This document shows, in pieces, positions 1 through 15,135 of a DNA stretch of 15,135 bases. Source of the DNA: a virus (Duplodnaviria; Heunggongvirae; Uroviricota; Caudoviricetes); IMG/VR virus record IMGVR_UViG_2721755498_000002. One strand, 5' to 3'. The notes under the pieces are model-generated. The model searched no databases. It saw only the letters and a program-made list of their open reading frames with translations, and had not been told where the DNA came from. A program made the position numbers and the translations under genes. Positions within the stretch are counted from its first letter, which is position 1. Each line of letters starts with the position of its first letter.

Positions 1-996
1 TTAACGAACCAGCCAGACCAGCATCAGGATAATCGCGACTAACAGTATCCACAGCGCGGGACGCGTTGCCATATTTTGCAACGTGTCCATCATCGGTGGA
101 AAAGGATTAAGCAGCGGTTGCATAACACGCGGATCAATCCCTTTAACCCGCCGTTGATAAAGCTGATTAAGAATATCCTCGGCCTGGGCAGAAGAAAGCG
201 ATGATTGCGCAGAAAGACCATATTTTTGCTGGATATATGCCGATAACGCCGCCAGTTCACTGGCATCTAAAGGTTGTTTTAGCGTCATCTGTAGTGATTC
301 CAGCGTCGGCGTATTTTGCTGGCTTAGCGTCTGACGCGCCTGTAGCCAGGTCACCAGATGGTTAAACAGTTTCGCTGGAATTAACTCGCCATCTTTCACC
401 CCGGAAAGTTCCAGCATCGATTGCCAGATCTGTTTGCTGGGTTCCCCCGTTGCCGCCGCAAGTTTGGTCACCAGCTGTTTTAGCGCATTGTGCTCCGCCG
501 GTAATAAAGGACGGTCGGTCGCCTCGCGCTGCTGTGGTTGCGGAATAACCATCTTCCCTTCCTGCAACAGGGTGAGAATGGTTTTTAATTGCTCCGGTGA
601 GAGCTGATTCAGCGGCGTCTGACCAAAGTTATGACGGATATAATCCGTGACCGCCTGACGATTATTCCCCAGACGTAAATACTCCCCTAATTGCGCTAAA
701 AGCTGGCGGGCAGAATGGCTTTTTTGCGCGGCCAGCAGACGTTGCGCCAGATTATGCTCAGCGGCAGGGAAGTGACGCGAAAGCAGCGGTGAATCTCCCG
801 ACAGACCAATATCGTGCCTGATACCCGCCCACAGTTCTGCTCTTTGCTGTTGCGTCAGTGAGGTCACTTTCGTCATTAAGCTTTCCAGCGAAGTACGTTG
901 CTGACTGGATAAAGGCTGATTGCCCGTGCCAGACGGCAGATTATCTCCCTGACCTGGTGGTTGCCCAGGAGGAGGGCCGGAAATAGGTTGTATCAT
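1..996 (-). CDS. hypothetical protein: Pro/Gln-rich N-terminus (PPPGQPPGQG), Gln/Leu-rich middle, C-terminal hydrophobic tail anchor (ALWILLVAIILMLVWLV)
   Basis: 331-codon ORF whose stop codon is the first 3 nt of the window (TTA on + = TAA on -). GC-rich, host-like composition. No family recognised from memory. Confidence 0.6.
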   Translation of the reverse strand: MIQPISGPPPGQPPGQGDNLPSGTGNQPLSSQQRTSLESLMTKVTSLTQQQRAELWAGIRHDIGLSGDSPLLSRHFPAAEHNLAQRLLAAQKSHSARQLLAQLGEYLRLGNNRQAVTDYIRHNFGQTPLNQLSPEQLKTILTLLQEGKMVIPQPQQREATDRPLLPAEHNALKQLVTKLAAATGEPSKQIWQSMLELSGVKDGELIPAKLFNHLVTWLQARQTLSQQNTPTLESLQMTLKQPLDASELAALSAYIQQKYGLSAQSSLSSAQAEDILNQLYQRRVKGIDPRVMQPLLNPFPPMMDTLQNMATRPALWILLVAIILMLVWLVR

Positions 997-1263: not shown

Positions 1264-2156
1264 CTATTTCCAGTTACAAGCAGCTTGAAGTGGTTTTAGC
1301 GCGTTTGACAGGCCGTTTAAATTGAAAGTTGCACTTACAGGGCTCTCATTATAAGGAGTTATTTTTGTATACATTTTGTTTGAGTTGGCTAGTTTTCGGA
1401 TGAAATCAATGTCATTACCTTTATAAAAAACAGCCTTTGTATCTGTAGATACTAGCCAGTTTCGCTCAACTGCTTTCTGTTTATCAAGACGATAAAGCAT
1501 GCTGGTTTGTTCAAGGCCTAAATATACATCCCAACTAAGAAATACTTCGGTTTTCTTTTCTCGGCAAGCTATAAACAGAGTGGGAGTAACCGCTTCTCCA
1601 AATGGAGTTCTGATATAATCATCACTTTCTAACGATAAAATTACATTTTTCGAATCATCAATTGGCGATGTAGTAATGGATGTGTGCCATTTTCCTACAT
1701 CTGTGGCTTTCTCTAATTTTGATTCAGCTTGAACAGCTTTATCCTGTGGGAATAGTTTATCGTAGCAGTTTAGTCTGGCTTCTTTATCATTTTCTGCTCG
1801 GCATTTAGATATCTCAGAAAGATTTGGTTGCTGAGCCTCTGTTGTTACTGGCTTTTCCGTTTTAGATTTTGAGTTTACAGATGGAGTAAATGTTGGAGAA
1901 AAAAACGATCATAACAAGATAAACGTCTGTCATCATCTTTCTCATCAGGGCATTGATCTCTGCTTTCGAATTTTTCAGCAACTTTCGTTCGAGTCGGTTG
2001 TATTGACTTATCGTAACAAGAAAGTCTGTCTTTATTATTTTCTATTGCTCGGCACTGGAGTACTGCATTGAAGTTATTATGTTCAGTTGCTGCGTGAACA
2101 GGCAGTACACTAATTGATATAAATGATGCACCTATAGAAAAAATTATATTTTTCAT
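1264..2156 (-). pseudogene. secreted Cys-repeat protein gene split by a frameshift in an A7/T7 homopolymer (ORFs 1875..2156 and 1264..1908)
   Basis: The 93-aa ORF starts with a signal-peptide-like MKNIIFSIGASFISISVLPVHA. Its frame stops at 1875-1877, while a second frame is open from 1908 down to 1264 with no start codon until 1500. The two frames overlap across the A7 run at 1899-1905; one extra base would fuse them into about 297 aa. The motif RL[SN]CYD[KR] occurs three times across both halves, which supports a single original gene. Confidence 0.5.
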
Positions 2157-2160
2157 TTTG

Positions 2161-2493
2161 TTATCCTTTTGGTTTAGTAAGAAATACTAAAATTCCGATA
2201 ATGATATCGCCAATAACCCATAAACTTCCAATGGTAATTAAACCTAAGCCTGTACCAATAACTGCACCGGCTTTTTCGGCATCGGATGTAGCATTATTTA
2301 TTATTTCACTAGTGCCTCCCAGTCCAACTAAAAGCGTATAGATCATAAAAATATTAAATAATATAAATATCCACTTAATGAGCTTTCCAAAAAATGAACG
2401 CTTAAGTTTTTTTATTTGTTTACCGCAAGCAGGGCAATACAATGCTGAATCGCTCACCTCTTTCTGGCATTCAGGACATTTGATTAATGCCAT
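2161..2493 (-). CDS. zinc-ribbon domain membrane protein (N-terminal CPEC-x13-CPAC, then two hydrophobic glycine-rich helices)
   Basis: 110-aa ORF with a strong RBS (AAGGAGG) upstream of the ATG at 2493. Stop is 4 nt from the start of the downstream signal-peptide ORF, suggesting an operon. AT-rich. Confidence 0.6.
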   Translation of the reverse strand: MALIKCPECQKEVSDSALYCPACGKQIKKLKRSFFGKLIKWIFILFNIFMIYTLLVGLGGTSEIINNATSDAEKAGAVIGTGLGLITIGSLWVIGDIIIGILVFLTKPKG

Positions 2494-2753: not shown

Positions 2754-2894
2754 TTACTGCTTACACTGTAAGAACGCCGCAAACTCCGCTCCCCAGAAAC
2801 TCATCCGTATTTCGCACAGCGAACCGTGCAACATCCAGATGATGAGGATTACCGTCACGCAGAACGTGATGGCTGTAAGCGATTTTTGCGACAT
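2754..2894 (-). CDS. hok: Hok/Gef-family type I toxin (46 aa: MSQKSLTAITFCVTVILIIWMLHGSLCEIRMSFWGAEFAAFLQCKQ)
   Basis: Hand translation of the - strand. Single N-terminal transmembrane helix followed by the SLCE[IL] and E[LFV]AAF[LM] motifs typical of Hok proteins (compare HokA ...WMIRDSLCELHIKQESYELAAFLACK... as recalled). AAGGAG RBS 8 nt upstream. GC-rich hairpin (2723-2744) just downstream. Not in the ORF track because it is under 60 aa. Confidence 0.7.
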   Translation of the reverse strand: MSQKSLTAITFCVTVILIIWMLHGSLCEIRMSFWGAEFAAFLQCKQ

Positions 2895-3084: not shown

Positions 3085-3345
3085 TTAATTCTGAGGTAAA
3101 GGCAAACTCATCTGATTGTTTCCCCTGTGTGAAGCTGGTAGCACATGCCACGGGATACCTTCTGAAGAGTGAACGCCGGAGGCGTGTTTCGATGTGAATT
3201 TATGGAAAGCTTCCAGTGTTGAGAAGCATACGCCGCATTCCAGATTGTTACACTGGTAATACTTTTGCCGCACGGTGTTTGAATCATTTTCCGGACGACT
3301 TGTGCGGATACGGGCAGATGCGCCACAAAGCGGACAACGGAACAT
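3085..3345 (-). CDS. ogr: Ogr/Delta-family zinc-finger late transcription activator
   Basis: N-terminus MFRCPLCGASARIRTSR...YYQCNNLECGVCF matches the C-x2-C-x22-C-x4-C Ogr zinc finger (P2 Ogr begins MFHCPLCQHAAHARTSR as recalled). AGGGAGG RBS 5 nt upstream of the ATG. Confidence 0.85.
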   Translation of the reverse strand: MFRCPLCGASARIRTSRPENDSNTVRQKYYQCNNLECGVCFSTLEAFHKFTSKHASGVHSSEGIPWHVLPASHRGNNQMSLPLPQN

Positions 3346-3428
3346 AGCGACCTCCCTTAACGTGGTGTTGCCGCTATTCTAGATTGTACGATCCCTAATT
3401 CCAACTAACAGCTCGCTCTGTGCGAAGA

Positions 3429-3501
3429 GTGAAAATTGAACTTTCAATAGTTGTTGAACTTCCATACATCCAATGTGAAAATTCATACGTTCATAATAGT
3501 T
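3429..3501 (+). repeat. two direct repeats (GTGAAAATT...TTCA(A/T)TAGTT) 46 bp apart in the upstream region of the 3537 ORF; possible operator or promoter elements
   Basis: Exact 9-mer GTGAAAATT at 3429-3437 and 3475-3483, each followed by a similar TTCAATAGTT / TTCATAATAGTT segment. The region is AT-rich, so chance cannot be excluded. Confidence 0.3.
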
Positions 3502-3536
3502 AAAATTTAAAATATTGTATATCAGGTGAATAAAGC

Positions 3537-4559
3537 ATGGGAAGAGATATAACGCTGTACCCTAAAAAAGCAACTAGAAACGAACTTAAAAATTACCTTG
3601 AAAATTTAGGTTTTAAAAGGTGTAAACATTTGTGGGAATGGCCCCAAGGAACGTTGAATTACTCTTGGTTTGATGATACGGACTTCAAATCTACAGATGG
3701 AGTTTCGGCTGATATATATCCTGTTTCAAATGACGAATTACACATATCTGGTAATAAATGGGCATTGCATGTGCGTAATTTATATAGCGCTAGTTGGCAT
3801 GATGTAAAAATGCTTAATGATGTTCTAAAAGGCGCAAGGAGTCTTTTTGGTGGAACACTTATAGGTGATTATGGGAAAAATAGGTACGCTCCTCTATGGA
3901 AGGATTCTAGTAGTCCGATCAGTCGTGGCATTTCTTCAATATTTAATCATGTCCATCATGAGATTTCCGCTGTTAAACATGCCTTACCTGAACCTTCTAT
4001 TAAATTAAACCTACCGGAAGATGGCGGTTTATCCGAATACTTTGATTACATGCAATGTATGGATCCCAGTAGAGTTATATATAATGGATTAGTACCTTTT
4101 GCGGTTGCTATGTTTGAATACTTTTTCTCTAGAGCTTTTCAAATACTTATAAAGTACGATCCTTTCGCAATAGCAAAAAGAACATCGTATAAGCAAAAAG
4201 TTGATTTTGATATTCTGCTTGAGATAGAGAAAGGAAATATTTCAATAGAAAGTGTTATTGCAAGAAATTACACTTTTCAAAACTTAACCCACCTAAACAA
4301 AGCATATAAAGAGTGGCTGGATATAGATGTGAGAGCGATTCTTTATAAGAAAAAAAGAATTGGAAAATCAGTTGATTTTCTTGAGAATCGAATTTCTGAA
4401 ATCATACAATATAGACATGGGATAGTTCATCACTTTGAGTTGGATAGGACCTTAAATCGGGATGGATATATTCATATATTAGATGCGATAGAAAAAAGCA
4501 TAATTGAATTTATCCATTACATAGAAGGCAAATACAAATTTAAATTAAATGCGTATTAA
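3537..4559 (+). CDS. hypothetical 340-aa protein; AT-rich cargo gene with a C-terminal HEPN-like R-x4-H motif (YRHGIVHH, residues 292-299); candidate abortive-infection or defence protein
   Basis: Long uninterrupted ORF with strongly AT-biased codon usage, unlike the flanking phage genes. Sits between ogr and D on the opposite strand. Lys/Ile/Asn/Tyr-rich composition. No family recognised by eye. Confidence 0.7.
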   Translation: MGRDITLYPKKATRNELKNYLENLGFKRCKHLWEWPQGTLNYSWFDDTDFKSTDGVSADIYPVSNDELHISGNKWALHVRNLYSASWHDVKMLNDVLKGARSLFGGTLIGDYGKNRYAPLWKDSSSPISRGISSIFNHVHHEISAVKHALPEPSIKLNLPEDGGLSEYFDYMQCMDPSRVIYNGLVPFAVAMFEYFFSRAFQILIKYDPFAIAKRTSYKQKVDFDILLEIEKGNISIESVIARNYTFQNLTHLNKAYKEWLDIDVRAILYKKKRIGKSVDFLENRISEIIQYRHGIVHHFELDRTLNRDGYIHILDAIEKSIIEFIHYIEGKYKFKLNAY

Positions 4560-4587
4560 GCAATCAACCTTACATAGGGATGACAAA

Positions 4588-4625
4588 GTCCGCTTCTGAC
4601 ACGGAGCGGACCGTCGTTTATGTTT
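4588..4625 (+). terminator. candidate intrinsic terminator (GTCCGCT-loop-AGCGGAC followed by a T-rich stretch) downstream of the 340-aa ORF
   Basis: 7-bp stem at 4588-4594 / 4605-4611 with a 10-nt loop, followed by CGTCGTTTATGTTTAATT. Located between convergent genes. Confidence 0.35.
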
Positions 4626-4679
4626 AATTCTATACTGTAAACTTGCCAGTTTAAGTTTGAGCTAATATGTCTAAGTTGC

Positions 4680-5789
4680 TCACTCTGTTTCTGCTATCCA
4701 TTCCGGGATTTTTGCCTCAAGCTCAAGCTGTGTGGTAAAGCCGCTGTTATCAATGGTGTGCTCGGCTTTCGCAATAATCCAGTCCTGATTATCAATCTCG
4801 CTTTTAAATCCTGTTACCGTGCCATGCATTTCGGGGTAGAGTTCTGCACGTCCACGCACCAGCGTGATGGAAAATAATGCGGCTCCGCGTTGTAGCTGCT
4901 GCCACTTTGCCGCCGCTGCGCGTCTTGCTGCCTGCTCGTTCTGATAAGTCTTGCGTAACACAAACACATTGCCTTCCGCGCCTTCCATATAATCACCTTC
5001 ACGGCTGCTGCTTTTCTCCTTTTTGGGTTTTGGCGGTTTGCGGCGTTTCACGCTGACTTTTTTCTTTTTCCCGTAATTAAGATCAAGCCAGTAAGCGCGT
5101 ACCCCCGTATACGCCTCGCGGTCAGCAATGCGGAACTGATGGCGATCGCCGCTGCTGCGTGTGATGGCGAACGATGGCAACGGCTGGCCCTGTGCGTTCA
5201 CGCCACCGCCGGGCATGATGAATAACAGATTACCGCTTTTTACCGTGGTGATTGCGCCCAGCATTTCCGCCATGCGCGTAAGGAAGGACATGTCGCTTTC
5301 TTCAGTCTGGTCGGCGTGGTCGATTTCGATATCCATCAGCATTTCGCTGATTTGCGGTTTCAGGCTGTACCGATGAGCGATGGCGGATACCACACGTTCA
5401 ACGTTCACATCATGCCAGGACGCCTCACGTTTAACATTAAATTCATCCCGAAAATCTGCGCTTCTGGCTGAAACAGTCAGCCTGTCCGGCGGTCCTTCGT
5501 GAGCGATTTCATCAACAATGTAAGTGCCTTTTTCTGTCAGCGGTTCCCCTTTCCAGCCAATGAGAACCGTCAGACGCGCGCCCCGTGGCGGTAGCTGCAA
5601 CTGGCCATCGGCATCATCCAGCGTGATGGTGAGCTGGTCCGCCTCAAATCCCCGGTTGTCGGTCAGTGACAGGCTCATCAGGCGTTCTGCCACGCCGGAC
5701 AGCGTTTTACCCTCGGCGAGAATATCAAAATCCGGCATTTTCACGGGGTCTGTGCCCTGACTGAGCAATTGCATGGTGGTGTCGGTCAT
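4680..5789 (-). CDS. D: P2 gpD-like tail protein (late control gene D family)
   Basis: The 413-aa ORF is trimmed here to the ATG at 5789-5787 (MTDTTMQLL...), which has a GGGAGGG RBS. Size of about 370 aa, the C-terminal GFKSEIDNQDWIIAKAEHTIDNSGFTTQLELE region, and the context next to a P2-like tail module fit gpD. Assignment is from memory of the family, not alignment. Confidence 0.75.
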   Translation of the reverse strand: MTDTTMQLLSQGTDPVKMPDFDILAEGKTLSGVAERLMSLSLTDNRGFEADQLTITLDDADGQLQLPPRGARLTVLIGWKGEPLTEKGTYIVDEIAHEGPPDRLTVSARSADFRDEFNVKREASWHDVNVERVVSAIAHRYSLKPQISEMLMDIEIDHADQTEESDMSFLTRMAEMLGAITTVKSGNLLFIMPGGGVNAQGQPLPSFAITRSSGDRHQFRIADREAYTGVRAYWLDLNYGKKKKVSVKRRKPPKPKKEKSSSREGDYMEGAEGNVFVLRKTYQNEQAARRAAAAKWQQLQRGAALFSITLVRGRAELYPEMHGTVTGFKSEIDNQDWIIAKAEHTIDNSGFTTQLELEAKIPEWIAETE

Positions 5790-5946
5790 CTGTTCCCTCC
5801 CTGTGCGGCATGGTCGCATGTGCGTGCGGAGGGGGTTACTGCTTTTTGTTGTCGCCGTGGCGGGAGAATAGCGCAGGGGTGAGATTACGCGCGTGGTGGG
5901 TGATGATTGTTGCTGAATCATTTAACGGATACAAGGGGCTGAAGCT

Positions 5947-11628: not shown

Positions 11629-12837
11629 TTATAAAGAATTGCTACTTTCTAATTCTGGGTTTCTGGATCTATTTTTACAACCTAAATCCGAGTGGTAATT
11701 CGGTATATCGTTTGTCAAATCTTGTTTGATAGCATTAATTAAGATCATTATGTCGAATTTATGCATATCGTCGCCCCCTTCAGACCTTAGATGTTCGGAT
11801 GTGGTGAGTTGAGTCGCTAATTTGCTGTTTGGCCCCCACACAATATTATTTTCGAATTTTCCTTCATGCATTCTGTTATTATATATACAGTATTGTCTAA
11901 TGTTTAATGCACTGGCTAAATGTACAATGGCAGTATCTACAGTTATAACAAAATCAGCATGGCGAACCAATGCAAATGAACATCCGGCATCAGAAAATGG
12001 AGATAGAGACACATTATCCAATCCATTGTGATTAATCTGTTTTCCCATATTAAAAACTATTGTGTGATATCCCTTAAGGTTATTAAGGTAAGCTAGTACT
12101 TTGTTTATCTGTTCATCAGATAAGGTTCTGCTATTCTGAGAGCCATAAGGGTTAAATATAACTAATTTTTTGTTTTTCTTCCTGAATTCATTTGCAACAA
12201 TATTTGCTGGTTCATATATTTTGTTGTCAAAATTAAGCGCTGCAGCATAATTATTATTTTTTATCTTTAGTAAAGATAAAACTTTTTTCATTCTTTCAGA
12301 TGTGTGAATGGAACGATTATCGATTATATTTGTATCAAAAATAGTTACGGCAGGATGATTAAAACAGATAGAGTGTTTAGGTCTAAGTAAATGTAGTGTT
12401 TGCAATCTGGTTATCGCTGTGTTATCAAAATTTGAGAAGTCAACAACAAGATCTACATTCAGTTTTTTTATCTTTGCTTTTAGTTCGTTAAATTTATTTT
12501 TCTCGTAAGATATAAAGGCATCCACGCCAACAATATCAGTAAAGAGGAATGATACTCTTGAAGGTGCTATCACATATACCACCATACCGGATTTTTGAAG
12601 TTGTTTAATAAACCCTGAGGTAACGATGCCGTCACCAATGGCTTGCATGTGCATGAAAATGCACACTGTTTTATAACTATCCGGCTGTAATGATGTTTTC
12701 CTTCTGTATCGCATTTTTAGAAATGCCAGTCTGGCCTTCGTCTTTATCTTTTTTGTTTTAATATTTCGCTGTCTGTTAAGCTGTTTTAATGATGAAATAA
12801 CATTCATAATGGTACCCTGAAATTCCAAATCACACAT
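11629..12837 (-). CDS. glycosyltransferase family 9 (heptosyltransferase-like) protein with a ~45-aa Lys/Arg-rich N-terminal extension; AT-rich cargo gene
   Basis: GT9 hallmarks: N-terminal Gly-Asp motif (MQAIGDGIV), central KKLVIFNPYGSQNSRTLSDEQ, and C-terminal VITVDTAIVHLASAL (compare WaaC VVSVDTGLSHLTAAL as recalled). Strong AT bias. The true start may be the internal ATG (MNVISS...) at about 12807. Confidence 0.65.
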   Translation of the reverse strand: MCDLEFQGTIMNVISSLKQLNRQRNIKTKKIKTKARLAFLKMRYRRKTSLQPDSYKTVCIFMHMQAIGDGIVTSGFIKQLQKSGMVVYVIAPSRVSFLFTDIVGVDAFISYEKNKFNELKAKIKKLNVDLVVDFSNFDNTAITRLQTLHLLRPKHSICFNHPAVTIFDTNIIDNRSIHTSERMKKVLSLLKIKNNNYAAALNFDNKIYEPANIVANEFRKKNKKLVIFNPYGSQNSRTLSDEQINKVLAYLNNLKGYHTIVFNMGKQINHNGLDNVSLSPFSDAGCSFALVRHADFVITVDTAIVHLASALNIRQYCIYNNRMHEGKFENNIVWGPNSKLATQLTTSEHLRSEGGDDMHKFDIMILINAIKQDLTNDIPNYHSDLGCKNRSRNPELESSNSL

Positions 12838-12901: not shown

Positions 12902-13501
12902 TTATGCTTGTTTACTCCTTGATTCCACTGGGGAAGCTGGCCACTCAATATCCGGTGCTCTTGATGTATCAACACGGTTCAGCAGCACTCGATACTTCTT
13001 CCAGGCTTCCAGCAACGAGATTTCTTCCTCCGTTGCGATTTCCAGATCTACAGCATCCTGAAGTGGCGCAATATGCTCACTGGCTACCTGCATCAGGCTG
13101 TTTTTTGTTTCTTCTGCCTCCCGGATCCGGAACAGTTTTTCTGCTTCCGTATCCTTCACCCAGGCTGTGCCGTTCCACTTCTGATATTCCCCTTCCGGCG
13201 ACGACCAGGTAACATTTTCCGGTAACGGACCGAGTTCAGAAATAAATAACGCGTCGCCGGAAGCCACGTCATAAACCGTTTTACCACGATGATCTTCAAC
13301 GAGATGCCAAGACGCCCCATCACTGTTGAAAACAGCCACGAAGCCAGCTGGAATATCTGGCGGAGCAATATCAGTACTATTTGCAGGCAGACCTGTATGA
13401 GGTGGAATGTATGCATCACCTTCACCAATAAATTCATTGGTTCCGACCAGCAGATTATAAATTTTTATGGTTCGTGGTTGTTCACTCATTCTGAATGCCA
13501 T
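12902..13501 (-). CDS. tfa: tail fibre assembly protein (Tfa / P2 gpG-like chaperone)
   Basis: 199 aa with the conserved Tfa C-terminus ([30 protein letters not shown]). Start overlaps the stop of the upstream tail-fibre fragment (TAATG). Confidence 0.85.
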
Positions 13502-13744
13502 TATGCAAGCCTCACAATATAGTTAAATGCGATGTTTTTTACGGTGTTTTCCGCGTTGCCATAAGCGGCAATGGTAATGGTGTGTGTGTGCGAACCAATA
13601 GCGAGCGTATGTGTATGCGCACCTATTGCTACTGTGTGAGTATGAGCTCCTGCGCTTAATACGCGATTACTTGCTGTCTTGCTTGTGTTAGTTGCATGCA
13701 TTCCACCACCGGTACCGGGAGTTTCTGCGTATGCTGAAGTATTG
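13501..13744 (-). pseudogene. tail fibre gene, C-terminal fragment only (His-x-His repeats [24 protein letters not shown]); 5' part replaced by IS1
   Basis: The reading frame runs into the IS1 left end at 13745 and the listed Met lies inside IS1. The C-terminal HTHT repeat region is typical of phage tail-fibre distal domains. Confidence 0.8.
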
Positions 13745-13799
13745 GGTGATGCTGCCAACTTACTGATTTAGTGTATGATGGTGTTTTTGAGGTGCTCCA

Positions 13800-14075
13800 G
13801 TGGCTTCTGTTTCTATCAGCTGTCCCTCCTGTTCAGCTACTGACGGGGTGGTGCGTAACGGCAAAAGCACCGCCGGACATCAGCGCTATCTCTGCTCTCA
13901 CTGCCGTAAAACATGGCAACTGCAGTTCACTTACACCGCTTCTCAACCCGGTACGCACCAGAAAATCATTGATATGGCCATGAATGGCGTTGGATGCCGG
14001 GCAACAGCCCGCATTATGGGCGTTGGCCTCAACACGATTTTACGTCACTTAAAAAACTCAGGCCGCAGTCGGTAA
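13800..14075 (+). CDS. insA: IS1 InsA (transposition repressor / N-terminal part of the InsAB' transposase)
   Basis: 91 aa; [43 protein letters not shown] is the canonical InsA sequence. Confidence 0.9.
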
Positions 14076-14497
14076 CCTCGCGCATACAGCCGGGCAGTGA
14101 CGTCATCGTCTGCGCGGAAATGGACGAACAGTGGGGATACGTCGGGGCTAAATCGCGCCAGCGCTGGCTGTTTTACGCGTATGACAGGCTCCGGAAGACG
14201 GTTGTTGCGCACGTATTCGGTGAACGCACTATGGCGACGCTGGGGCGTCTTATGAGCCTGCTGTCACCCTTTGACGTGGTGATATGGATGACGGATGGCT
14301 GGCCGCTGTATGAATCCCGCCTGAAGGGAAAGCTGCACGTAATCAGCAAGCGATATACGCAGCGAATTGAGCGGCATAACCTGAATCTGAGGCAGCACCT
14401 GGCACGGCTGGGACGGAAGTCGCTGTCGTTCTCAAAATCGGTGGAGCTGCATGACAAAGTCATCGGGCATTATCTGAACATAAAACACTATCAATAA
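13994..14497 (+). CDS. insB: IS1 InsB reading frame (expressed as the InsAB' transposase by -1 frameshift at TTAAAAAAC, 14049-14057)
   Basis: 167-aa frame matching canonical IS1 InsB ([27 protein letters not shown]...KHYQ). Confidence 0.85.
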
Positions 14498-14512
14498 GTT
14501 GGAGTCATTACC

Positions 14513-15135
14513 TGAATCGGTTATCCGGAATGTTTACCGTGCTGAAAAAAATAGGTCTTTGGGATGCAGAACATCCAGTAAGGGGAATTTCTATTCTTTA
14601 TGTATCTCCACGAGAAATGGCGTTCCTGTCACAGAAGGAAGTGGCGCTATTGCTCGATACACTGGAGGGCGACTACTGGCGTGTTGCGCTTTTGTGTTTA
14701 AGCACAGGGGCGCGCTGGAGTGAAGCTTGTAAGCTTCGTGGTGAACAGATAGTTCATAACCGTGTAACGTTTCTTGAAACCAAAAATGGCCGGAAGAGAA
14801 CAGTGCCAATTTCGCAGGCAGTTTGTGAGGCGATCAAAACCAGAGAAACAGGCGGCTTGTTTGAGGTGAAGTACCGGGAATTCTGCCTGGCGCTGAAAAG
14901 AGTTAAGCCCGATTTACCAAAAGGCCAGGCTGCACATGTGCTGCGGCATACGTTCGCCAGCCATTTTGTGATGAACGGAGGAAACATTATTGCGCTTCAG
15001 AAGATTCTTGGTCACGCAACCATTCAGCAAACAATGGCATATGCGCATTTTGCACCGGATTACCTGCAGGATGCGGTGGCCCTTAATCCGCTGAAAGGTG
15101 GCGTAAGTGTCCACGCAGTGTCCACGGGGGATTAA
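14513..15135 (+). pseudogene. int: tyrosine recombinase (phage integrase) C-terminal catalytic-domain fragment; N-terminal part removed at the IS1 junction
   Basis: The frame is open straight out of the IS1 right end. It contains the catalytic R (GARWSEA), H-x-x-R (HVLRHTFAS) and Tyr (TMAYAHF) motifs. About 207 codons, where an intact integrase would be around 330-400. Stop is at the window end. Confidence 0.8.

Follow-up and report, generated by a model that had tools for sequence, protein, structure and literature searches.

A putative HEPN ribonuclease cassette in the variable ogr-D slot of P88-like Escherichia coli prophages, a candidate single-gene anti-phage system

Here we describe a single AT-rich gene that lies between ogr and D in a P88-like prophage of Escherichia coli. 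The DNA analysed is the IMG/VR virus record IMGVR_UViG_2721755498_000002, a stretch of 15,135 nucleotides (nt) to which we refer as the window. The product of the gene is a 340-amino-acid (aa) protein that joins an N-terminal domain without a sequence family to a C-terminal HEPN domain in which a putative ribonuclease (RNase) motif is conserved throughout the family. The gene occupies a slot that is empty in most related prophages and filled by unrelated single genes in others, and its homologues recur as solitary genes across several phyla. On balance we favour the reading that it is a stand-alone, single-protein anti-phage abortive-infection gene encoding a putative HEPN RNase. A preliminary description made from the letters of the window had proposed a prophage-borne defence moron at this position; foreign composition, variable slot, solo gene and every other part that can be addressed computationally held up, and protection is what we infer from them.

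Results

A HEPN domain at the C-terminus of the ogr-D gene product

The gene is the long, clean open reading frame (ORF) that the preliminary description had picked out (Table 1), and it is the sole long ORF within 3346..4680, where all others reach at most 47 aa. Its start codon is fixed because the N-terminus, MGRD, is invariant among 40 close homologues. The AT bias that had been claimed is present, with a mean G+C content of 0.34 for the gene versus 0.48 for the whole window and about 0.50-0.55 for the flanks, and by region the values run from 0.31 to 0.38 along the gene and from 0.48 to 0.59 in ogr and D. Both flanking genes match Pfam families and both are on the minus strand, so the gene is antiparallel to its two neighbours, as had also been described.

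A Pfam search placed PF18735 (HEPN_RiboL-PSP) over residues 181-329 (E = 1.2e-4) at 22.5 bits, below the gathering score, and returned nothing else at E ≤ 0.1. A HEPN-type R-x4-6-H motif had been read from the sequence at R293-x4-H298, in the peptide QYRHGIVHHF (R293 at 4413-4415, H298 at 4428-4430). In a deep alignment of 42 family members at 20-62% identity, both of these residues are invariant, together with G55, D89 and E194. Near-invariant in the same alignment are S86, N94, G105, G106, G113, N183, F247, Q248 and H294, the last being conserved at 90% or more. Further, 32 of the 42 divergent relatives match PF18735 at E ≤ 0.01 (best E = 5e-9), so that, judged by profile, the C-terminal domain belongs to RiboL-PSP-HEPN at the family level; most close homologues also carry a precomputed PF18735 match. 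The protein has both features by which the HEPN superfamily is recognised, the family-wide R-x4-6-H motif and an all-helical core, and we consider the assignment of the protein to the RNase type of HEPN domain very likely.

The preliminary description had not recognised the N-terminal 200 aa at all. This stands for residues 1-112, for which no sequence family was found, and does not stand for the remainder, where a helical linker is followed by the HEPN profile from about residue 181. By fold, the N-terminal domain most resembles the C-terminal domain of ZipA (score 8.3), followed by SZT2, Med20 and PH1012 (7.6) and SirA (7.3); further likenesses are to KA1 domains (about 7), including the RNA-binding KA1-like modules of METTL16 and TUT1, and to the N-repeat domain of RnlA (6.9). 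The viral structures of BFVD gave no match at E ≤ 0.001. Within the close family, identity is 0.76 for the N-terminal domain, 0.69 for HEPN and 0.52 for the linker, the least conserved part; in the deep family it is 0.31 for the N-terminal domain versus 0.30 for HEPN. The AlphaFold2 model has its lowest confidence at the catalytic motif and again at the conserved GKNRY loop (residues 115-122), and the loop region averages about 95 when the N-terminal domain is modelled by itself. In the actual protein the catalytic segment and the GKNRY loop may make contact with one another, or else with a partner or protomer.

The ogr-D junction is a variable cargo slot

The two flanks of the gene were matched in 1,241 of 5,426 complete E. 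coli genomes, and 65 of those 1,241 carry the gene; P88-like prophages are present in about a quarter of complete E. coli genomes. We scored the state of the slot on 60 rows spaced evenly through the ranked list of 1,244 E. coli records. The junction is empty in 34 rows, with a span of 707-709 bp like that of phage P88, holds the 340-aa HEPN gene in four, and holds other single genes in six; 14 rows matched one flank only (one of them with IS2) and two gave tiny matches. The variability that had been claimed for this position is therefore borne out, and the gene is far from being a fixture at the junction in essentially all relatives. At least seven slot states can be told apart, comprising the empty junction, the 340-aa gene, the bSEFIR gene, an α/β hydrolase, four different unknown genes and IS2. 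In keeping with the expectation of defence cargo, one alternative occupant, a TIR/SEFIR protein, is the known defence gene bSEFIR (PADLOC PDLC03957, E = 1.2e-43). It is the sole occupant recognisable as a known system and the remaining ones are unannotated: the α/β hydrolase and the proteins of 221, 201, 384 and 132 aa had no match in PADLOC or NCBIfam. Their position makes these five single genes defence candidates.

Slot occupants are found in either orientation, and in the sampled variants they are single genes only. The occupied variants have in common about 60 bp beside ogr and about 90 bp beside D, and the insertion in the window is bracketed by two copies of a short repeat (TCTAGATTG on the left and TCTAAGTTG on the right) of which the empty P88 junction has a single copy, reading ...GCTATTCTAAGTTCCTCACTCTG. 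The ogr-D junction has the anatomy of a cargo-exchange hotspot. Its likeness to the P2-family hotspots, old/tin between gpA and gpQ and Z/fun, is that unrelated cargo swaps at a fixed place between conserved flanks (PMC9122126). The analogy with these loci drawn in the preliminary description therefore carries over as cargo-slot logic, but old/tin and Z/fun are different loci: the ogr-D slot belongs to P88-like Xuanwuvirus, holds single genes only as sampled, and is mostly empty. In the literature on P2-family hotspots that we searched, the gpA-gpQ (old/tin) locus is described and ogr is not mentioned.

Two further observations concern the flanks. The start of gene D is ambiguous, as the maximal ORF in the window encodes 413 aa, the RefSeq annotation in E. 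coli strain H1 gives 266 aa (4680..5480) and D of P88 has 366 aa. Relative to the FI-FII-E-T-U tail genes, moreover, D and ogr are inverted in P88-like phages, which is not so in P2.

The gene travels with its leader and a downstream hairpin

A promoter region of the gene's own, with direct repeats, had been claimed for the upstream DNA. Despite unrelated flanks, about 125 nt upstream of the gene are conserved between the E. coli P88-like phage, Hafnia, Mixta, a Pantoea lambdoid prophage and the P2-like viral contig L021, and the conserved stretch includes a −35 element TTGAAY and an extended −10 element TGtRAAAAT. In distant hosts the leader is not conserved. The promoter is a candidate that scores 8/12, where the consensus scan needs 9/12 and so did not call it. 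The direct repeats, of 9-16 nt, carry no weight because they are at chance level, an exact repeat of at least 9 nt arising in about 13% of composition-matched simulations. The terminator-like hairpin that had been pointed out downstream has a 9-bp stem with 6 G-C pairs and a fold z-score of −3.9 (in standard deviations versus shuffled sequences); it is conserved 3' of the gene on viral contig L020 and in Mixta, and the bSEFIR-occupied variant of the slot has it as well. Since the upstream stretch and the hairpin are conserved among close relatives in unrelated contexts, the cassette moves as one unit of candidate promoter, ORF and hairpin.

We also looked for an antitoxin within the cassette. 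A type III or AbiF-like RNA antitoxin or other regulatory RNA was rejected: the non-coding DNA up- and downstream is unconserved in distant hosts and Rfam gave no match over 3300..4720, both of which argue against it, and the repeats are at chance. A Tha-like antisense inhibitor or small antitoxin ORF was rejected as well, as the only ORFs are those of at most 47 aa and none of them is conserved. Between the stop codon of the gene and D there is no ORF of 50 aa or more, and the small ORFs there are not conserved.

Solitary homologues occur in many phyla, several of them near defence genes

A word-indexed search returned 295 proteins, of which 120 were listed; nearly all of the 120 matches listed are about 340 aa long and 64-99% identical, and they come from Pantoea, Proteus, Shewanella, Aeromonas, Pseudomonas, Methylococcaceae and Halochromatium. 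When 1.84 billion cluster representatives were searched in full with a HMMER profile, 343 clusters scored E ≤ 1e-3; their full-length members have the same N-plus-C architecture at 310-370 aa. Scanning one genome per species revealed copies with 56-88% identity, spread over at least six phyla. The hosts include Hafnia, Mixta, Halomonas, Endozoicomonas, Marinobacter, Alloalcanivorax, Halovibrio and Moraxellaceae and, further, Desulfuromusa, Desulfobacterales, Ulvibacter, Winogradskyella, Kapaibacterium, Gemmatimonadaceae, a metagenome-assembled genome (MAG) of Patescibacteria and a spirochaete. The copies in the Patescibacteria MAG (L040), Spirochaetia (L044), Flavobacteriia (L035 and L041) and Gemmatimonadaceae (L036) are 56-68% identical to the E. 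coli copy. A 100%-identical copy on a short contig of a 'Planococcaceae' MAG (L024) is probably binning contamination.

That the gene acts singly, as had been claimed, agrees with its neighbourhoods. All-against-all clustering of ORFs of at least 60 aa within ±5 kb of the gene in 25 loci revealed no neighbour family common to more than 2 of the 25, which rules out a conserved partner gene, and in 25/25 loci the G+C content of the gene is lower than that of the locus. Several neighbours are nonetheless recognisable. In the Pantoea lambdoid prophage the gene is beside the PADLOC candidates PDC-S11 and SIR2/PDC-S25, in Halovibrio it lies 98 nt after SIR2/PDC-S25, in the Patescibacteria genome it is directly 3' of the Hachiman gene HamB (E = 0) and in the spirochaete it is two ORFs downstream of a type I HsdM. 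Other copies adjoin a UvrD-type helicase (a Pseudomonas integrase/AlpA/DUF927 island), DUF4160/DUF2442 genes (Halochromatium), a CBS-domain protein (Aeromonas) or umuDC-like cargo (a 39-kb viral contig). No defence gene could be recognised around the copies in Shewanella, Hafnia, Desulfuromusa and Alloalcanivorax. The association with such genes, though clear, does not extend to every locus. The copy on viral contig L021 is flanked by copies of a tail-fibre C-terminal gene and of a tail-fibre assembly gene in opposite orientations, a cargo position other than ogr-D.

Comparison with known HEPN systems

Anantharaman et al. (2013; PMC3710099) described the RiboL-PSP-HEPN group as a distant relative of AbiD/AbiF. 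The C-terminal domain is like this group in having R-x4-H and in matching its profile, below the gathering score in the window protein itself; unlike the contexts from which the group takes its name, the protein has no endoRNase L-PSP fusion and no ParB operon in the 25 loci, and its subfamily is marked by a fixed α+β domain of its own at the N-terminus and by a length that stays at about 340 aa. No Abi_2 profile and no PADLOC AbiD/AbiF model matched it. NCBIfam and PDB sequence searches with the protein gave nothing, and PHROGs gave a non-significant match only.

Among validated E. coli HEPN defences, DARNA, PD-T4-2, DS-11 and the GNAT system have in common that a non-catalytic domain or partner controls the RNase (10.64898/2026.02.22.705581; PMC9519451; PMC13092281). 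DARNA (PD-T7-3) combines an N-terminal HEPN domain with a C-terminal helical sensor of single-stranded DNA (ssDNA) and senses ssDNA and the protein SSB (10.64898/2026.02.22.705581), and DS-11 (CBS-HEPN) and the GNAT+HEPN pair have been validated in E. coli (PMC13092281). PD-T4-2_B and the HEPN protein of the GNAT system are labelled RiboL-PSP-HEPN, and in both types the catalytic R/H and a helix-1 Glu align with the 340-aa protein. An hhalign comparison with the validated GNAT-system protein was co-linear and placed E194 on its helix-1 Glu and R293/H298 on RNHLVH. The 340-aa protein differs from all four systems in domain order and partner domains, PD-T4-2 and GNAT being two-gene systems and DS-11 having CBS; no PD-T4-2 model of PADLOC matched, and no PD-T4-2 partner gene occurs in the 25 loci.

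The nearest architectural analogue is RnlA, in which α+β N-terminal domains also precede HEPN and the motif has the same 'RHxxxH' form. Unlike RnlA/LsoA (RNase LS), the protein has one N-terminal domain rather than two, and no counterpart of the antitoxins RnlB or LsoB lies downstream of it. Sequence and profile comparisons with RnlA showed no significant similarity (BLASTP of the pair, E = 3e-4 over 68 aa; hhalign, E = 0.39), and Pfam gave no RnlA match. Neither with RnlA nor with a validated RiboL-PSP-HEPN defence protein could homology be established, the hhalign comparisons being non-significant though co-linear at the catalytic residues.

Two further systems come from prophages. HepS of the Gifsy-1 prophage is a single HEPN protein of 218 aa that is activated by the siphovirus tail-tip protein J and cleaves the anticodon loops of transfer RNA (tRNA) (PMC13043305). 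Tha, a tail-activated HEPN system of Staphylococcus aureus prophages, is under the control of an inhibitor gene that overlaps it in antisense (PMC11087260). The 340-aa protein has no detectable sequence similarity to either; unlike HepS it has an extra N-terminal domain, and unlike Tha it has no overlapping antisense inhibitor ORF. HepS, Tha and DARNA are close precedents for single-protein HEPN abortive infection from a prophage.

The host prophage and its other cargo

The window matches E. coli strain H1 at 100% identity and Escherichia phage 500465-2 at 99.8%, and the host element is a P88-like E. coli prophage of the genus Xuanwuvirus, family Peduoviridae. In strain H1 the prophage is an IS1-truncated remnant with flk on one side and pdxB on the other, and it keeps the tail module, ogr, hok/gef and two AT-rich cargo genes. 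Its left end abuts flk, and at window ~13500..15135 (L016 21502..23136) IS1A disrupts the tail-fibre gene and adjoins a truncated integrase beside pdxB; the HEPN gene is intact despite the truncation. Defective P2-like elements have been reported to keep defence cargo, with which the H1 remnant agrees (10.64898/2026.02.27.708500). A weak Pfam match of the ORF at 1..996 to 'GemA' was dismissed, as RefSeq annotates it as the chromosomal gene flk.

Several other genes of the remnant deserve mention. A Hok/Gef family toxin gene (2754..2894, minus strand) directly adjoins ogr and is kept in every P88-like slot variant examined (L011-L015, P88 and phage 520873); Rfam made no call of a hok/sok RNA at this gene at the gathering threshold. 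The interval between flk and hok (1264..2493, minus strand) is AT-rich (G+C 0.31-0.39) and contains a frameshifted pseudogene, TagO/VasI-like and associated with the type VI secretion system (ORFs 1264..1500 and 1875..2156), and a gene for a 110-aa zinc-ribbon protein (2161..2493, phrog_6586). The second AT-rich cargo gene (11629..12837, minus strand, G+C about 0.28-0.37) is situated between tail gene U and the tail-fibre assembly gene and encodes a 402-aa glycosyltransferase of family 9, heptosyltransferase-like (phrog_36326, E = 7e-243), plausibly a lysogenic-conversion or receptor-masking gene that modifies lipopolysaccharide. Within the tail-fibre assembly gene (12902..13501) the Rfam family IS009 (RF02111) matches at 12960..13158 on the minus strand with 218 bits, which suggests that what this family describes may in fact be coding sequence conserved among P2-like phages.

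Table 1. Coordinates of the ogr-D gene, its flanks and related loci (positions in the window unless a contig is named)
Feature	Position	Strand	Remarks
ogr	3085..3345	-	Ogr/Delta zinc-finger late activator; left slot border; PF04606, E = 5e-14
Promoter-like site TTGGAA-17-TAGAAT	3376..3404	-	just upstream of ogr, in the ~60 bp common to occupied variants
Bracketing short repeat, left copy TCTAGATTG	3378..3386		
Leader	3420..3536	+	moves with the gene among close relatives
Candidate promoter, -35 TTGAAC	3454-3459	+	17-nt spacer to the -10
Candidate promoter, extended -10 TGtGAAAAT	3474-3482	+	
Shine-Dalgarno AGGTGA	3524-3529	+	
Cargo ORF	3537..4559	+	complete, 340 aa plus stop; RefSeq WP_000532200.1, annotated 'hypothetical protein'
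N-terminal α+β domain	3537..3872	+	residues 1-112; no sequence family
Conserved GKNRY loop and long helical linker	3873..4076	+	residues 113-117 (loop) and 127-180 (linker)
C-terminal all-helical HEPN domain, RiboL-PSP-HEPN type	4077..4535	+	residues 181-333
R293-H294-G-I-V-H298	4413..4430	+	putative catalytic R-x4-H motif
G+C-rich terminator-like hairpin	4588..4611		between gene and D; could act in both directions
Bracketing short repeat, right copy TCTAAGTTG	4670..4678		directly before the D stop codon
D	4680..5921	-	tail/baseplate hub; right slot border; PF05954, E = 3e-16; maximal ORF
α/β hydrolase, 252 aa	L012:1004-1762		slot occupant
Unannotated protein, 221 aa	L013:796-1461		slot occupant
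Unannotated protein, 201 aa	L014:807-1412		slot occupant
Unannotated protein, 384 aa	L015:854-2008		slot occupant
Unannotated protein, 132 aa (phage 520873)	L009:979-1377		slot occupant
Homologue on P2-like viral contig L021	637..1659 of the contig		81% identity; in tail-fibre region

Discussion

Several of our results weigh against an anti-phage role or against the HEPN assignment on which it is built. The Pfam score of the window protein falls short of the gathering score of 28.4 bits, the AlphaFold2 model has a predicted local distance difference test (pLDDT) value below 50 at the catalytic motif RHGIVHH (residues 292-299, window 4410..4433), and the hhalign link to validated RiboL-PSP-HEPN defence proteins is not significant (E = 0.026). 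The PADLOC models, a search which the preliminary description had suggested, gave no match for the protein at E ≤ 1, and the consensus scan called no confident σ70 promoter. The N-terminal domain is conserved at least as strongly as the HEPN effector domain, which is unusual for an arms-race sensor, and identity at 56-88% between phyla is more than is usual for a defence gene. A recognisable defence gene is missing from about half of the neighbourhoods sampled. Finally, our literature search found no publication on the 340-aa protein and no experiment on WP_000532200 or its relatives, and the accession appeared neither in the literature nor in the part of the DefensePredictor supplements that was covered.

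The high conservation across phyla and of the N-terminal domain leaves room for a selfish toxin or an RNA-regulatory role. As a selfish toxin or addiction module, the protein would be a HEPN toxin held by its own N-terminal domain or by an unrecognised labile antitoxin, and would stabilise the element or compete, with no dedicated anti-phage role. We consider this unlikely, given that no partner is conserved in the 25 loci, that neither a small conserved ORF nor a conserved upstream RNA was found, and that the slot is empty in most relatives, so that the gene is not needed for prophage maintenance; the idea is also not fully separate from abortive infection, because the roles of toxin-antitoxin systems and abortive infection overlap, as for RnlA. 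An RNase that processes or regulates RNA for the prophage or the host, for example by tuning transcripts in lysogeny as a form of lysogenic conversion, would draw on the likeness of the N-terminal fold to the KA1-type RNA-binding modules of METTL16 and TUT1, on the strong purifying selection on both domains and on the copies in chromosomal islets without defence neighbours. Such a role appears quite improbable for a gene with a patchy, clearly horizontal distribution and foreign G+C content in 25/25 loci, which most P88-like phages lack, whose place in the slot bSEFIR can take and which elsewhere adjoins Hachiman, restriction-modification and SIR2 genes.

The position beside ogr, the late activator exploited by P4-type satellites, raises the thought of a weapon between mobile elements, directed at P4-like satellites, competing prophages or plasmids rather than at lytic phages, and P2-family hotspots do carry cargo of mobile-element conflict (PMC9122126; 10.64898/2026.02.27.708500). 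Nothing satellite-specific was found, however, and the gene also turns up on integrative islands, in lambdoid prophages and in phyla that lack elements of the P2/P4 type, which makes this very unlikely. Some HEPN domains are non-catalytic (sacsin, the C-terminal domain of kanamycin nucleotidyltransferase), and the poorly modelled active-site segment and the sub-threshold Pfam score would sit well with a domain that binds a ligand or nucleotide, or acts as a scaffold, in an unrelated function. Against this, R293 and H298 are invariant and H294, N183, E194 and F247-Q248 are near-invariant or invariant, as expected of a catalytic HEPN domain (PMC3710099), and a HEPN-like domain that is not a nuclease seems highly improbable.

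For the reading that we favour, abortive infection by a putative HEPN RNase, we infer expression, RNase activity, dimerisation, a trigger and protection as follows. The moron cassette (promoter, one ORF and hairpin) would have been inserted in the variable ogr-D cargo slot of a P88-like prophage, and the lysogen would make the 340-aa protein from the cassette's own promoter. The N-terminal domain, GKNRY loop and linker would hold the HEPN site inactive until the N-terminal domain binds a cue of infection, be it a small ligand, a nucleic acid or a phage protein. The HEPN RNase would then be switched on, probably as a dimer with a composite active site, as is usual for metal-independent endoribonucleases of the HEPN superfamily, and would cut tRNA or another RNA, so that translation stops and the incoming phage cannot replicate. 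Because the gene is antisense to D and ogr, we can further speculate that late transcription from D to ogr silences it during the prophage's own lytic cycle, much like the switch-off of Tha; the hairpin and ogr's own promoter make this speculative idea uncertain.

If the N-terminal domain, which is as conserved as the effector in a protein 56-88% identical between E. coli and groups as distant as Bacteroidota, Spirochaetia and Patescibacteria, is indeed the sensor, it would sense an invariant feature of infection that is hard to mutate and not a fast-evolving phage protein. Such a feature might be a perturbed host process or a universal phage product, and the cue is likely to be general because the protein is so highly conserved. 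Tentatively, the gene could be the founding member of an unrecognised multi-phylum family of single-protein immune systems, in which the N-terminal domain, as a new module for sensing a trigger or selecting RNA, is coupled to a HEPN RNase, and the ogr-D junction could be an additional, so far undescribed hotspot with at least five more unknown single-gene candidates; we regard this wider proposal as possible rather than probable. With no PADLOC model matching it, the gene is one that current defence-finding tools overlook. Should the gene not be protective, it would still be a clear case of a widely transferred HEPN toxin-like cassette. If it is protective, it would represent a compact promoter-to-terminator module of single-protein HEPN immunity with a new sensor domain, present in many phyla. 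Our data also mark the ogr-D junction of P88-like prophages as a cargo slot with a short list of candidates that includes bSEFIR and uncharacterised single genes.

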